Source of the DNA: Roseibacillus sp.
Lineage (GTDB): Bacteria > Verrucomicrobiota > Verrucomicrobiia > Verrucomicrobiales > Akkermansiaceae
NCBI GenBank assembly: GCA_051251855.1
Contig: JBPOGI010000001.1
Location: forward strand, 1,312,001 to 1,376,000
DNA: 64,000 nucleotides
Direction: 5' to 3'
Made by a program: the position numbers. Positions within the stretch are counted from its first letter, which is position 1; the number at the start of each line of letters is the position of its first letter. Positions 1-45,000 of this stretch are shown here, one piece after another.

Positions 1-3000
1 GCCAGAAAAGACTGATATTTTCGATGATCTCACATCACTTGGACGGCCCTTAGATGAGGTCATTCCATCTCGTAAGATCATGACGTCGTTGCCTCTACGG
101 AAACCTCGTAGGGATGAATGGGTCCGACTTCACCGAGAGATTCTGGCCCGAGTCTACATTTACGAATCAAAAAGTGACGGTTCCTCGTATCTTGTAACGC
201 CAGAGGTCGTCGAGCCTTTGTCTGATGTCGTGAGGTATGTCCAGTTGACCTTGGCGGTGAACTACGTCGGCTCGGTATTCGCTTGGCCCGTTCCGGTTCC
301 GACCGAAAGCAGGCCGCACCGGGCTCATTTGACTGCCTTTGCAGGTGCTGAACAGGCGACTACTAAGTGGATTCGTATTTCTTGGGGGGATGGAGAGTAC
401 GATGTCTTCCAACGCTCCTCGACTAAAGCCGAACCTGTTTGGCCAGAAGAAATCAAAACCCCGAGTGAGATGTTACGCTTCATTGCGAAGTCAGGCGGCT
501 TCGAAGTGATCGATTCAGCTGACCACCCGGTAGTTCAAGGACATCTAGGCCTCGACTAATGTTATAACCAGTAGAGCCCTTCATCTTTCCGATGGAGGGC
601 TCACTTTCTGAATGAAAACATTTTGCATAGACTTTGAGTATCGCGCAGAGAACGGGCGATCTCTCCAAATTTGGTGCGTCGCATGGGTTTGTCTCGAAAC
701 CGGAGAAGAAAAAACACTTTGGCTTGATCGCGACAATACCACCACCCCTTTCCCAAAAGAGTTTCGAATGGTCGCCCACTATGCTCTCGCAGAATTATCC
801 TGTTTTCTCGAACTAGGATGGAAGTTGCCAAATGAGGTTATCGACACCTTGGTTGAGGCGCGAACTGTGAGAGGACAAAGAGCGCCAGCATTGGGGGGCT
901 GGAGTTTACTCTCAGTAGCCAACTCATGTGGCATACGAACCATGAGCTCTGAGCACAAAAACGAAATGCGTGACCTAGCGATGGGCCACATCGTCCCAGA
1001 GGATAAAAGGACAGAGTTAGAGCTATACTGTCTAGATGATGCGCTCGCAGGGCTTGCCGTATACAAAACCCTTGAACCCAGAATAGAACAAAATGAAGCG
1101 ATCCTCCGGGGGAGATTCTTAAAATCTTTGGCACTGATAGAGCGCCGAGGAATTCCGAGTGATCGTGACCTAGTCGTGAAGCTAACAGAGCATCACTCCG
1201 CAATCCTCGAAGCCTCTTGGTTAAAGGCTAAAGACAGCTACCCTGGGGTCATCTCCGAAACCGGAAAATTCTCATCAAGGGCTTGGGCCGATTGGTGTGA
1301 GAGCCACAACATTCGTTGGCCTCAACTCGCTAGCGGCTTACCAGCCTTGGACGCAGACACTTTTAAAAGAGCTGCCGAGATTCACCCGGTTGTTAGATTG
1401 ATGGGCAACGCACGAAAAATGAGAGGTCAAAACCGAAAGTTTGATTTTCCCTTGTGCTCCGATAATCGCCTTCGGTGCATGTTGTCACCTTTCTCTTCCG
1501 ATACGGGGCGGAACCAACCGCCCAGCAGTAAGTTCATATTCGGGGCGAGTTCTTGGTTGCGGTCTATTGTATCTTGCCCCGAAGGCAAAGTTTTAGCCTA
1601 CGTTGATTACACTTCACAAGAAGTTGGTCTAGCGGCAGCCCTGTCGAAAGACAGAGCCCTTCTTTCGGACTACGAGAGCGGAGACCCTTACATCGCTTTT
1701 GCGATTCGAGCGGGTGCTGCGCCCTCAGGTTCGACGAAGAAGACACACCCTAACGAGCGAGCGAGCTACAAAACCGCAGCACTTGCGATCCAGTATGGCA
1801 TAGGTGAAGTATCTCTAGCCGGAAACCTTGGTATTCCACTCCCCGCTGCCAAGCGACTAGTGAGAGAACACCAGTCTGCGTATCCCAAATATTGGCAATG
1901 GCGCCAAACTGTTGTTGATGAGGTAAACTGCGGAGGTACTATCTCAACTCAGTTTGGATGGCAGCGTAAGGCTAAGCAAAAAGATTCAGCAAACTCAGTC
2001 GCCAACTTCCCTGTCCAGGCCGCAGGCGCAGAGATTCTCAGGATTGCCATCATTGCTCTGGAAGAATCCGGCCACAGTGTTGTTGCTCCTGTGCACGATG
2101 CTGTCTTGGTTGAAATGGAGTATGAGGGCTGGACCGAAGAGCTAGCAGAAGTTCGTAGACTGATGAGTAAGGCGGCTAAGGCTGTCACCGGAGGTCTTTC
2201 TATCCCCACAGATGTTGAACTTACCTTTCCAGGCGAAAACTTCCTGGATTCAAGAGGACAAAGCTTCTGGGAAATCGTGAAGCCCGTCATTGGACGAGGT
2301 CCTCTGATGAACCCTAAATTTGATGCATTCCGAGCCTCAGAATCCCAGATGTGAGGATTCCCATTCTCTTTAATATAATAGACATGAGCTTCCCTACCAA
2401 CTCTTCAAAAACAACTTCTCCACGTTCGCCCTCATGGGTAGCTGAACGAGATGCACTCCGCGAACTTGGCGATAGAAAAACTCGCACCATATTGGCTGTT
2501 TATCTGGCTCGGAGAAGCGCTCGAAGGTTGCACTTTTTCGTCCACCCAGATCTAGCCAAGCTCTATGGCCTCAGTCCTTCAGATCTAAATTGGGCTCTCG
2601 ATAGACTAGAGGGTGAACTTGTTGAAACGCTGGGAAGTAAAAAGGGCCGATATCGTAAGCTTAGACTTATCCCCGACTTTGAAAACTCTGTGGGGAATGA
2701 GCCACATCCTCAGCATGATTTTGAGAGGAAATCCAAAAGAGCCTCTCTTCATGGAGAAAAGCTTATCCCCCACTCCGACCTTTTGGTCCGTCAGCCCCCC
2801 GATAGCCAGAGAGGACTTGCACCTGAGATCATTGAAACGCTAAGGCAACTAGGAGCGACAAAACAGACACGATTAGAATCGAAGTAACAAATTTTTTAAG
2901 CTCTCTGCACATACTCCTCTGCACTCATTCAATTCTATGTGATCTTGAGAGATCACAGATCCGCTGCGCCCCGGCGACGAAATGAACCTTTATTCTTCAA

Positions 3001-42000: not shown

Positions 42001-45000
42001 TTTTCACCACCTTCCCTCCTCCAGTCAAGCCTCCGACCCACCAGCGGTGGTCGAACTTATGGCTCTTCGTTTTGTTCTGATACACCTTTCGCCTCTCATT
42101 TATGTAGGGTCTTCGCGAGTCCTCAAGAGTCGCTTCCCATAAATTATTAGAGATTGTCCAAGCCTGAACTTTGACTCACCGTTAGTCTTGACTGTCAAAG
42201 TGACGTCTTCGTCACGCTTCCAATTCTTTCTCTCTAACAATGCCCTTGGCCTGACTCCTACCCTGCCGAGGAGAGGTCAACCGTATCCTTATGGCGGCAC
42301 CTTCGCTCATATTGCGGTCGGCAAAGCCGCTAGGCTTTCCAGATAAGGAAGAAGCCATCGCACTCGGAATGCCACAAATTCACAATGGCCAGAGGCGATC
42401 AGGCAATTTGATTCGCGGCGAAGAACTGCAGGGCTAAGACGAGAATTAGATTACGCACATCTAGAAAAGTAGTGCTATTGGAAAATTTTCATAAGTGAAT
42501 ACGCAATTTTCGCACCTCTGGTGTCATTAGATTCTGAGTAGGGAGCAGTTAATCTGTGGGGCCGGGTTAAAGGTGATTCTTTGCGATGCTGGGAGCAGTG
42601 GGCTGCTTCGTGCCAGTTAGCTGACTCGAACCTTTCTCCCTGACCGCTCCTGACCGCTAGGAAATCTCAAAGACAACGAGCCATCCTGTAACAAAAATAT
42701 CAGCATCGCACGGAGGGTGGATCCTCCAATCTTGACGAGCCGACCTTCGCGCGATTCAACCACTACCAACACTCTCCCCGCGTCTGCTATTCCAGCAGGT
42801 CCGGGAGCCACCTGGCAATCGCCACGGCAGGCTCCTGAGTAGGGGTCGTCGTGTTGTTTGCCTTTCACAACCAACCGAAAGGAAACCCCAACGATGAGTC
42901 CCATGATGGAAGAAATGTTAGTACAAGAAGTCGTGCCTCGCCTGCGAAATGCAGCAAGCACAATTCCGAAAATCGGCCATGAAGACAACGATGAAATCGT
43001 TCAGGACGCCACTTTGATGGCGGCCCGAATGATGGACTCCGCCGAAAAGGCAGGCCGCAGATTCACCGCCGGAACCATGTCTTACTATACGATCAAAGCT
43101 GCGAGAAGCGGACGCCGTAGTTATTACAGTGGTCGCAGTGAAGCATTATCAGCCGGTTGTCAAATCGACGGCAAGGCAAAGCACCAATGGATGGATATGG
43201 AGGTCGAGTTCGAGAACGGAGATGTCGGGACCTTGCACGACGTCATAGCGCCCAGTCGCTACTTTGGCCAAGAACCCGATCCTGCCGAGGAAGCCGCACG
43301 TAATCTCGATTGGGAGGCCTTTTTCGCCAATCACTCGAAGCGCCACCGCAAAGCCATTCTTGCACTAGTTGAAGGTAATACCATGCGCGAAGCTGGAAGA
43401 CGATGTGGCCTCAAAGATAGCGCCGCGCTGAACTTGAAACGCCGCATCGCCGCCGACCTCATCGAGTTTTTCGGCGAGGACGTAATCCGGTGTTTGTTGG
43501 ACGGCGCGCGCCCTCACTGGGAATCCGGTCTACAGATATCGCGTTAGCGGTATCTACCGTGTTACCGATGAATTCAATGCGTCAGAGCAGTCGAAGACAC
43601 GAGGTCACTCCCAGAATCCTGAGCATAAGCTTCGAGATGACATCGCCGCGCGAAAAAGCAACCTGAGTAAAAGTCTTCAACAGCCGCAGAATAACAAAAC
43701 AACAAGCTTGCCACGCCACCTTCGTTGAGGGTGGCGGGCCTGCTTTTTTATCTCCCTCCATCGCGACGGCTTCATCAAAGCTGGCTCAACACCCGGAGGA
43801 TTGATTACTGAAATCCTACCAACAGTTTTAAAAGGCTAAGCAATGTCCGTTCAGACACTGAAAACGTTCGACCCCACAAAAAACGCAAAAATCCTTCGCC
43901 ACTATTTCGCCAGTAAGTGGCCACAAACCCCTGCATTTGGGTGCATACTGCTGCATTTCCAACACACACTAAATCCGATTCAACCCTTTAACAGAAAGAG
44001 ATTTAAGAGAGAGGCGGCGGGCGGATTCGAACCGCCGAATACAGGTTTTGCAAACCCGCGCCTTAGACCACTTGGCCACGCCGCCTTAGTTTTCTTCCGC
44101 TCAAACGCGAACGGGCGCAAGGCTTAGAGTCTCGACGGGAAGCTGTCAATCCCCCTCTTGCTCGAATCTTCCATTCCGTCACAGAAAAGCGTGTGCCCTC
44201 CAGCACTCTTGGGGTTAGAATATCCCGCGCATGGAACTGTATCCCCGAGAATCCGAAAATCGCCCTGAGGCTCCCGCCATTCGCGCCTCCATTCATGTCG
44301 GCGCTTCGGCCATCTCCATGCTCATTCTCGACTGCGGAGATCCCGAACAACCACTCCCTCTTGAATTCCTCGAACAACCCCTTCCCTTAGGTCGAGACGT
44401 TTTCTCCAATGGTCTGGTTTCGCGCTCTACTACAGAGCGAGCCGTCGAAATCCTTACTGGGTATCTCGTCTCTCTTCGCGAGCTCGGAGCTGGTCCTGAA
44501 GAAGTCTCACGCGTGGTCGTTTCCAATATTCTTTCTGAAGCCACCAACAAGGAAATCGTTTCCAACCGTCTCTCGGTAGCCACCGGACTATCCATCGAGA
44601 TTCTTGACGATGGTGAAATGACCCGACTCGTCTACCTCAAGACCCTACGCCGACTCCACGAAATTGAGTCCATGAAAAAGCGGGTCACGCTCGTCGCCCA
44701 CGTGGGTCCCGGTAATACGCGCGCCCTTCTTTTTGCGAAAGGCCACATCGACGAATACGAATCCTACCGACTTGGCACCCACCGTACTGCCGAAATCATC
44801 GACGCCTCCTTCACCGAGGGCGAGGCCCAGCTTCGCCTCATTCGCGACAGCGCCTCGGGACCAATCTCGCGCGTCCAGTTCGACCTCCGCGAGCACCAAG
44901 TAGAAGAGCTCGTCCTCATCGGTTACGAGATTCAACTGCTAGCCCCTTACCTTCTCAAGTCCGAAAACGCTTCCCGTTGCTCAGTCAAGGCGTTACGCAC

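Follow-up and report, generated by a model that had tools for sequence, protein, structure and literature searches.

Pairs of a family A DNA polymerase and an SSB on integrative elements have already been described (PMC10061031; PMC7581432), and one of them, CcPol-MP, primes DNA synthesis de novo (PMC7581432). These PolA-SSB primases (Rice), and not the pipolins, are the closest system to the locus reported here, since CHEAP, the polymerase subfamily to which the locus is assigned, is a sister of the CcPol of SCCmec. As in the CcPol-MP-Cch2 sets, an A-family polymerase with a shortened thumb is found beside a small predicted OB protein, with a putative iteron origin nearby, and the integrative element that carries them is sporadic and has defence cargo. 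However, the known sets all come from Bacillota (17/17), lie beside a D5/COG3378 or DUF927 helicase, follow the order Pol-SSB-helicase and are mostly associated with serine recombinases, whereas the order here is SSB-Pol-wH (wH, winged helix), the SSB measures about 200 aa, the set lacks a helicase, a tyrosine integrase is found at tRNAs, and the hosts are mainly Gram-negative.

Pipolins have in common with this locus the tRNA islands, att repeats, integrase, single hallmark polymerase and defence cargo, but their family B primer-independent polymerase primes alone, and the parts of their description considered here mention no invariant SSB, wH gene or origin (PMC11551731). The expression "PolA counterpart of pipolins", used in the initial annotation, is apt for the life style and not for the enzyme, which belongs to family A rather than to primer-independent family B. 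The TV-Pol family likewise consists of PolA-related mobile-element polymerases proposed to prime, although these are D5-linked and reduced to a minimal core, unlike the full Klenow-like enzyme found here (PMC2579912). What is new in the present locus and its relatives is the flanking of CHEAP by SSB and wH genes in most of 80 relatives, the att-bounded elements without a replicative helicase or primase and the origin-like site.

The integrative element and its cargo

The window analysed is a stretch of 64,000 nucleotides of a Roseibacillus sp. contig, beginning at contig position 1,312,001. Its positions 1..44056 belong to a 47-kb island integrated at tRNA-Cys (contig 1309041-1356056). The tRNA-Cys gene lies on the minus strand at 44011-44085, 44011-44056 being the proximal att copy; the distal copy, located before the window (contig 1309041-1309086), is identical to the 3' part of tRNA-Cys at 43 of 46 bases, which bears out the 46-bp repeat initially annotated, and no third copy is found in contig 1230001-1360000. 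Three plus-strand genes also precede the window: the annotated tyrosine integrase (393 aa, contig 1309186-1310367), which matches PF00589 (E 1e-9), a 414-aa ORF to which no function is assigned (contig 1310138-1311382), and an excisionase-like HTH protein of 83 aa (contig 1311502-1311753) with a weak match to phrog_66 (E 0.07), a profile matched by 15 of 55 ORFs in the same slot in relatives. The 414-aa ORF was considered as one conserved family and rejected, unrelated ORFs filling its slot in relatives.

The element is sporadic, being found in 4 of 200 family genomes, and in 0 of 8 congeners. The congeners retain tRNA-Cys-ppx with different genes on the other side, and an exact empty site uniting the two flanks of this genome was not found among them. 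A 400-genome sample of the family of G019, in which three candidates were scored per genome, gave no further member; PLSDB plasmids gave no match at E 1e-30, and INPHARED phages a single unannotated one (27%). At the distal att, no joint or loose end is seen in the contigs of runs X1-X4, from which this DNA may stem, contigs being prone to drop rare forms. The integrase is present in 53/80 genome loci of relatives, and a tRNA or tmRNA in 28 of the 58 loci longer than 9 kb, in line with the earlier counts (52/80 and 27/62). The conserved core itself occurs in many phyla and in one archaeon.

Downstream of the core, the cargo starts with an AddB/AddA-like nuclease-helicase pair (6079..11990, plus strand), the AddA-like protein being a UvrD helicase; AddAB was rejected as a core gene, and AddA was not found in 8/8 congeners. 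Defence-type cargo then comprises a NERD-SF1 helicase gene on the plus strand and PLD-like, HATPase and SF2 helicase genes on the minus strand (12399..18631), followed by SspD, SspC, SspB and SspA with a Dnd-associated methyltransferase (18610..27115, minus strand; PADLOC E 4e-84 to 1e-159; TIGR04096). An McrB-like AAA protein (NF008457, E 1e-11) and an unannotated 433-aa neighbour are encoded at 30037..33101 (plus strand), and an AAA ATPase, a methyltransferase and a HIRAN-domain gene at 37136..41884. The Ssp-type phosphorothioation cargo of the initial annotation is thereby confirmed, and its McrBC-like cargo has an McrB-like match.

In PICIs, the integrase is followed by an AlpA/xis gene, replication genes and TerS. 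Phage satellites (PICI-like, VEIMEs) share this order with the five of 80 genome loci that carry TerS, but their primase-helicase (pri/rep) is replaced here by SSB-PolA-wH, and most members, this one included, lack a packaging gene. TerS together with DNA polymerase genes has been reported by Eppley in some module 6 VEIMEs, the passage considered not stating the polymerase family (PMC9618062). TerL or capsid genes are present in 11 of 55 IMG/VR loci and in one genome element, and members with terminase or capsid genes look like satellites; no TerS or capsid-related gene is annotated in the window.

The polymerase and its flanking genes

The polymerase gene (612..2354, plus strand) encodes a 580-aa family A DNA polymerase with a 3'-5' exonuclease (PF00476). 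The exonuclease DxE and the polymerase residues (D7, E9, D143, D332, R383, K387, Y395, H495 and D496) are intact, and the enzyme is whole, in line with the exonuclease-polymerase of the initial annotation. Judging by eye from its exonuclease, TGR, A and B motifs, which match those of the reference enzyme of Ideonella dechloratans, it belongs to the CHEAP subfamily (cluster 15), within which it forms a divergent Verrucomicrobiota branch (FastTree). The polymerase is therefore of an already described kind and is not new. It agrees with other CHEAPs in its motifs, in its intact exonuclease, in the Leu at position 3 of motif B (L391; Leu in 77/78, Phe in the host Pol I) and in the retention of a separate host Pol I (C1:1170302-1173139). 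The range, mainly Proteobacteria plus Methanomicrobia, is also shared, and P0091 is part of the Czernecki dataset (PMC10201439). CHEAPs are the subfamily nearest to the CcPol of SCCmec, polymerase and strong proofreading activities are demonstrated for one member in primer-dependent reactions only, and the enzymes are viewed as cellular auxiliary enzymes without known partners (Czernecki 2023; PMC10201439). Unlike the loci studied here, they are presented, in the sections of that work considered, with no mention of an SSB, a wH gene, an integrase, an att site or an origin (PMC10201439).

By alignment only, the thumb-to-palm spacer measures 18-19 aa in 78/78 sequences vs 23 in the host Pol I. 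This agrees with Rice's link between a shortened thumb helix and priming and counts for a priming activity, although a disrupted ("broken") thumb is common to APEX and SPO2-like PolAs and is thus no proof of it.

Upstream of the polymerase, an SSB-like protein of 244 aa with a probable OB fold is encoded on the plus strand from contig 1311825 to window position 559 (family profile E 5e-51). Its model is confident and beta-rich (pLDDT 89.5), and the best fold matches are to OB folds (Z 4.3, rmsd 4.2-4.7, 101-129 aligned residues). Those to gp32 (Z 4.3 and 4.0) give the longest alignments (129 and 132 residues). The earlier label "gp32-like" is not confirmed, the match being weak and tied with the BRCA2 OB fold. 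By sequence, nothing was matched in the PDB and PHROGs, nor was anything found in the ESM Atlas. The SSB family comprises 4471 clusters at E<=1e-10. Its gene is present in 72/80 genome loci of relatives, the other eight being contig ends, and its standing as a core partner (75/80 in the earlier count) is upheld; its stop codon usually abuts the polymerase start. P0266 was rejected as an SSB-Pol fusion, an unrelated frame following about 70 Pol residues.

On the other side, the wH gene (2384..2887, plus strand) encodes 167 aa, or 178 aa from GTG 2351. The winged-helix label, formerly assigned by eye, now has a weak family-profile match (E 2e-4 in a search of six loci and their ORFs) and close orthologues at 46-58%. 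The gene is found in 73/80 genome loci, SSB and wH flanking CHEAP; in L088 and L097, CHEAP is present without SSB or wH. The data support the view that SSB, PolA and wH form the conserved core of an integrative element in which neither a helicase nor a primase is conserved.

A candidate replication module

At the Pol-wH junction, positions 2309..2383 hold a predicted replication origin-like element, with a hyphenated palindrome at 2340-2360 (6-bp arms, 9-nt spacer), a second, weaker palindrome upstream and an AT-rich tract at 2364-2381. It is conserved in the close clade, and misses the tandem-repeat cut-off (10 of 20). In the family, the site is non-coding and consists of palindromic repeats, with a period peaking at 22-23 bp, and an AT-rich tract, usually just before the wH start.

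The chances are about even that a large family of integrative elements directed at tRNA genes has its replication module in the SSB-PolA-wH operon and this site. It can be hypothesized that integrase and excisionase release the island as a circle, and that the small wH protein, as dimers, occupies 2-4 palindromic repeats set two helical turns from one another and thereby opens the AT-rich tract next to them. The single strand would be held by the OB-fold protein in a complex with the CHEAP polymerase; together they would start DNA de novo, as MP enables for CcPol, and the proofreading polymerase would copy the circle by strand displacement without an element-encoded helicase or primase. The cargo, whether defence, metabolic, or terminase/capsid genes, would be exchangeable. 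The invariance of the core over many phyla and an archaeon counts for a replication module, as do the closeness of the strongly proofreading CHEAP to CcPol, which primes with MP, and a natural Pol-wH fusion (P0018). Cch2's C-terminal domain by itself (residues 400-538), which binds its origin, offers a precedent for an origin binder that lacks a helicase. That such a replicon is self-sufficient, with a stand-alone wH initiator, a proofreading PolA and its OB-fold co-factor together opening an iteron origin, priming without a primase and elongating without a helicase, is put forward tentatively, at less than even likelihood; the same reserve applies to the idea that it serves integrative elements and satellites by the thousand in bacteria and some archaea.

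The wH protein is probably the initiator, but its family matches HTH models only, all generic, with MarR and GntR first, and nothing beyond generic HTH in the PDB. These matches, and the fact that a wH does not forbid recruitment of a host helicase, count against the replication-module reading, as do the low Z of the OB fold, the loci L088 and L097, the loci that gave no site and the failure of this copy at the tandem-repeat cut-off. A small comparison with initiators and regulators (40 loci) gave an HTH_36 protein as the best match (25 bits), two Phage_rep_O proteins scoring only 2-3 bits. A rather unlikely alternative is that the replicon is the same but that the wH protein, like the Rep of an iteron plasmid, opens the origin and recruits the helicase and primase of the host or of a helper phage, CHEAP and SSB only elongating and proofreading. 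In iteron plasmids, WH initiators do act on iterons of 17-22 bp and a DUE before host DnaB is loaded, and CHEAP activity is so far primer-dependent; moreover, sister phage PolAs are accompanied by an SF2 helicase and often by a primase-type gene, and the members that resemble satellites by their TerS, TerL or capsid genes could borrow helper proteins. However, wH proteins are only about 120-150 aa long without a conserved second domain, and longer proteins containing the domain were sought and none found, which is weak evidence. The spread of hosts is awkward for a single host-helicase interface, and recruitment of the host replisome leaves the retention of a 580-aa polymerase hard to explain.

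It is improbable that there is no replicon, the palindromes being operators and the AT tract the promoter of an autoregulated wH gene, while Pol-SSB serves fill-in or defence. The site does mostly lie directly before the wH start, MarR/GntR matches would suit a regulator, and second-strand synthesis and defence are among the options listed by Rice for PolA-SSB pairs (PMC10061031); single-stranded incoming DNA or gaps arising in transfer or integration might be the substrates, and the cargo is often of the defence type. In favour of the replication module, repeat and AT tract occur together at 29/78 Pol-wH junctions vs 11/703 control gene ends, the tract lying behind the repeat in 28 of the 29. 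A conserved motif links the two in 28/78 vs 2/703, which counts against the operator reading; these counts include related, non-independent loci. The dyad symmetry of the repeats is retained although letters change, and in at least eight loci (L029, L040, L047, L049, L054, L071, L085, L086) the site is displaced or inverted relative to wH, which is unexpected of a wH promoter. The position matrix, trained on junction sites and therefore partly circular in its count of 57/94, served only to locate moved sites; about one third of loci gave no site. No relaxase match was obtained among the scanned ORFs, and the core remains with the integrase while the defence cargo varies.

Helicase-like genes and the size of the replisome

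The absence of a helicase from the core, formerly deduced from clustering, is now documented by annotation: no Pfam match to D5/COG3378 or DUF927 helicases occurs among the larger neighbours (260) or in 13 complete elements (236 ORFs), with the reservation that divergent ring helicases escape Pfam, as is seen at window 3005-4390. In the 13 further att-bounded elements (9.6-58 kb), DnaB, D5, DUF927, DUF3987, VirE and AEP gave no match, and in three of them, G028 (12.6 kb), G020 (37 kb) and L082 (9.6 kb), every ORF above about 200 aa is annotated, which leaves none able to conceal one. "Helicase-less" is accordingly valid for the conserved core but not for this island, with its three cargo helicases and two DUF3987-like genes.

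DUF3987 is an MCM-like AAA+ family. The first gene (3005..4390, plus strand; 461 aa, or 483 from GTG 2939) has a Walker A without GK[ST] and a structure model of pLDDT 44; in the ESM Atlas (0.94), 26/30 matches fall in the DUF3987 set. A paralogue (72%) lies on C6 and just one other locus has the gene, which is outside the conserved core. Its 445-aa partner (4394..5731, plus strand), which shares 17% identity with the 483-aa ORF (E 0.05) and has a 92% copy on C6 and no match in other loci, is probably a second degenerate DUF3987-like copy. That the pair is the element's helicase, making this copy an ordinary PolA-SSB-helicase operon, is very improbable despite the ESM Atlas grouping and its co-directional position adjacent to wH, for GK[ST] is found in 0/7 homologues, an island elsewhere in the genome that lacks SSB and PolA carries a copy of the pair with 84% DNA identity, and the only other examined locus with it has it on the opposite strand.

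With these results, the orphan CHEAP polymerases gain a home and a DNA target as well as two partners, and PolA-SSB modules are extended from Bacillota into a much larger helicase-free family. A site of 70 bp and three small proteins bring two open questions within reach, namely the way in which a polymerase of family A may begin DNA de novo and the minimal size of a replisome. If the proposal is true, integrative elements and satellites would have a replicon of a new type, which would also offer an amplification system that proofreads and needs no primer.

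Boundaries, cargo and occurrence of the island

The 47-kb island is enclosed, as the initial annotation had it, by an att repeat of the tRNA-Cys 3' end. The left boundary of the window falls within this island. The tRNA gene lies at window 44011-44085 (minus strand), and the second copy of its 3' part, the distal att (contig 1309041-1309086), is identical in 43 of 46 bases. The GC content of the segment is 0.507 vs. 0.538 and 0.518 in the flanks. Behind the distal att come a tyrosine integrase (PF00589), a 414-aa ORF, an excisionase-like HTH gene (83 aa, weak match), a 244-aa SSB-like ORF without family match, the family-A polymerase (PolA, 580 aa; window 612-2354) and a winged-helix (wH) ORF of 167-178 aa. 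The cargo, earlier described as Ssp-type phosphorothioation, McrBC-like and AAA genes, indeed includes SspABCD with a Dnd-associated methyltransferase as well as McrB-like and AAA genes, together with an AddAB-like pair, a NERD-SF1 helicase, an HATPase and an SF2 helicase. The AddAB-like pair (window 6079-11990) is the only one in the genome, with a GC content (0.57-0.59) above that of the rest of the island; AddA was not found in any of the eight congeners. A repeat of 120-150 bp occurs twice (window 41138-41286 and 41942-42095) and also in arrays on contigs C2-C4, C6, C7 and C10. Elsewhere in this genome, 10 tRNA genes are arrayed within 1.5 kb (G000:C10:114076-115599), and another small integrase element (G000:C1:943574-949201) carries a related excisionase gene and, by eye, primase-like ORFs.

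The sporadic occurrence reported for the core holds, the SSB profile matching 4 of 200 family genomes and none of the eight congeners. All eight retain ppx, which adjoins tRNA-Cys in five, and have different neighbours farther out. Since the neighbour beyond tRNA-Cys/ppx in two congeners maps to C1:1246860 here, the variable region may extend past the att-bounded 47 kb.

A recurring SSB-polymerase-wH core

In the species genomes of GTDB, at least 397 of at least 607 stretches were confirmed, and 80 loci were kept from these. Their hosts belong to Verrucomicrobiota, Planctomycetota, alpha-, beta- and gammaproteobacteria, Bdellovibrionota, delta groups, Acidobacteriota and Gemmatimonadota, and include one Methanosarcinaceae archaeon. 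By profile, the SSB-like gene is present in 72/80 loci (in the eight misses the contig begins at most 150 bases from the polymerase), wH in 73/80 and a tyrosine integrase in 53/80 (30 upstream, 23 downstream; 27/33 where both flanks are long), which upholds the recurring integrase-SSB-PolA core. The SSB stop mostly abuts the polymerase start, and the SSB family comprises 4471 clusters (50% identity) at E<=1e-10. In five loci (L006, L015, L024, L067 and L089), a small Cys/His-rich gene with an HGG motif follows wH in either orientation.

Regarding the polymerase, 77/78 sequences have Leu at motif B position 3, the catalytic residues are conserved and the host genome retains a separate Pol I. 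These are among the traits that the available text of Czernecki et al. (PMC10201439) gives for PolA cluster 15, the CHEAPs, and one relative (P0091) is present in their dataset. The CHEAP of I. dechloratans, with strong polymerase and exonuclease activity according to the same text, agrees motif by motif with our alignment in a by-eye comparison. On these sequence grounds the island PolA is assigned to the CHEAPs, for which that text gives "no known partners" and CcPol as the closest group. Two CHEAPs (P0096 and P0101) have a ~170-aa insertion in the thumb region. At L018 (7620-11731), AlpA, SSB and the polymerase N-terminus are tandemly duplicated ahead of an intact copy, and the Methanosarcinaceae genome (L060 / G025) has several polymerase copies that stops or frame breaks interrupt; in one of them TerS lies behind wH.

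The SSB-like protein is likely an OB/SSB protein, judging from its model (pLDDT 89.5), whose best structural matches are OB folds. The label "gp32-like" is not demonstrated: RB69 gp32 (Z 4.3) is level with the OB fold of BRCA2, T4 gp32 reaches 4.0, and none attains 5. Its viral matches are mostly unnamed. The wH family matches HTH models only, the window's copy matches the family profile weakly, and P0018 is a fusion of the polymerase with a wH homologue. In a control set of 40 loci, an HTH_36 protein scored highest against the wH profile (positions 41-122), GntR and MarR matches were confined to the HTH core, and two Phage_rep_O proteins reached only 2-3 bits; this sequence comparison is no more than suggestive of a likeness to initiators.

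Helicases, possible satellites and phage relatives

The claimed lack of a conserved helicase or primase stands as far as Pfam can tell. Neither the 260 ORFs of at least 190 aa that lie up to 4.5 kb from the polymerase across the 80 loci (best five families per ORF) nor the 236 non-core ORFs of 13 att-bounded elements matched DnaB, D5, DUF927, DUF3987, VirE or AEP. These elements are the 13 of 29 longer polymerase-bearing regions that are flanked on either side by a tRNA-end repeat, the two copies being 9.6-58 kb apart; the 29 were picked because their contigs were long or a tRNA was close by, four of them for a repeat already seen, and some may be tandem islands. Defence-type helicases (SNF2/ResIII/SF1) occur in five of the 80 loci, L065 has one sub-threshold DnaG-N match, and G028, G020 and L082 contain no unannotated ORF above ~200 aa. 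The Pfam negative is weakened because ring helicases can escape such a scan: the ORF at window 3005-4390 matches no Pfam family but falls with DUF3987 in the ESM Atlas (0.94). This ORF lacks a GK[ST] Walker A, has a counterpart in only one other of the loci examined and forms a pair with window 4394-5731; a copy of this pair, 84% identical, sits in an island elsewhere in the genome that is without SSB or PolA. The ORF is read as an acquired, degenerate module. A second island, at tRNA-Thr (G000:C6:273923-277590), carries an HTH gene, the same DUF3987-like pair at 72% and 92%, and genes of ATPase/helicase type, with no integrase, SSB or PolA in the listed stretch.

The curated plasmid collection gave no match and the curated phage collection a single distant one, while among 55 IMG/VR loci SSB was found in 13, wH in 14 and a large terminase in 11. 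TerS comes after wH in five genome loci. The att-bounded unit L082 (1-9724; 9.6 kb) encodes an integrase, the core, TerS and TerL of lambda type and a capsid protein, without a portal match, and is by gene content a candidate minimal capsid-forming satellite. Some marine satellites are described in the available text of Eppley et al. (PMC9618062) as having TerS and DNA polymerase genes, and those datasets may contain family members.

In a FastTree analysis of 94 polymerase rows, read as unrooted, the enzymes of the elements group together (59 rows, support 92; two of the contigs lack SSB and wH) beside 31 phage PolAs (support 99), most of which adjoin an SF2 helicase and many a primase-type gene. 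On such a tree, a phage ancestry of the element enzymes in which the helicase was lost is a possibility and no more. L088 and L097 are phage-like contigs with a CHEAP polymerase and neither SSB nor wH; in a group of tailed phages (L103-L133), the sister PolA is followed by a conserved gene of 130-160 aa that belongs to no family, by an exonuclease and by an SF2 helicase.

An origin-like site and the proposed role of the core

In most relatives, the gap between polymerase and wH contains tandem hyphenated palindromes, with a short conserved motif next and an AT-rich tract after it. The spectrum of repeat periods has its maximum at 22-23 bp, where 13 and 18 of the 77 loci reach 14/20 matches (vs. 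0-5 at other periods; period 22 reaches 14/20 in 0.8% of random windows). Repeat plus AT tract occur at 29/78 junctions vs. 11/703 other gene ends, the tract following the repeat in 28/29, and the conserved motif at 28/78 vs. 2/703. Although the repeat letters vary by clade, dyad symmetry is kept with several pair types: eight positions pair in 15-26 of 35 loci vs. 9-15.5 in shuffles (35 of 41 loci after de-duplication, kinship ignored). Where polymerase and wH overlap, the site is found upstream of SSB (L029, L040 and, twice, L049) or behind wH (L054, L071, L085, L086), and is inverted in L040, L047 and L071; in about one third of loci none was found. The window's own site (palindrome 2340-2360, AT tract 2364-2381) is conserved in its close clade and fails the tandem cut-off. 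Such sites resemble the palindromic iterons of lambdoid phages. The textbook plasmid origin has iterons of 17-22 bp adjoining a DUE and bound by WH initiators (PMC4980987, available text).

The core is probably the replication module of the integrative element. The most likely scheme for its action, at about even odds, is one in which wH would bind the repeats and open the AT tract, CHEAP with bound SSB would start DNA de novo, and CHEAP would copy by strand displacement. This proposal draws on kinship, since CcPol-MP primes and the C-terminal domain of Cch2 by itself binds the Cch2 origin (PMC7581432, in part). Priming is further suggested by the spacer matching the last thumb helix, by alignment 18-19 aa here vs. 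23 in the host Pol I, which fits the shorter helix to which Rice ties priming (PMC10061031, in the text available); the argument is weakened because a broken thumb is common to other PolA groups. Recruitment of a helicase and primase from the host or a helper is a less probable, still serious alternative to self-sufficient initiation by the core, and it is doubtful that the palindromes are operators and the polymerase serves gap filling or defence.

From what is available of these papers, all 17 PolA-SSB sets of Rice (PMC10061031) adjoin a helicase and are in Bacillota, whereas the present core is helicase-free; pipolins (PMC11551731) use a PolB, unlike the island's PolA; and TV-Pols (PMC2579912) accompany D5 helicases. 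The literature searched, which lacks most subscription papers, yielded no publication that deals with the SSB-CHEAP-wH operon, with the elements carrying it or with its origin. The family is real and very large, and what is new is a helicase-free arrangement of known parts together with a candidate origin.
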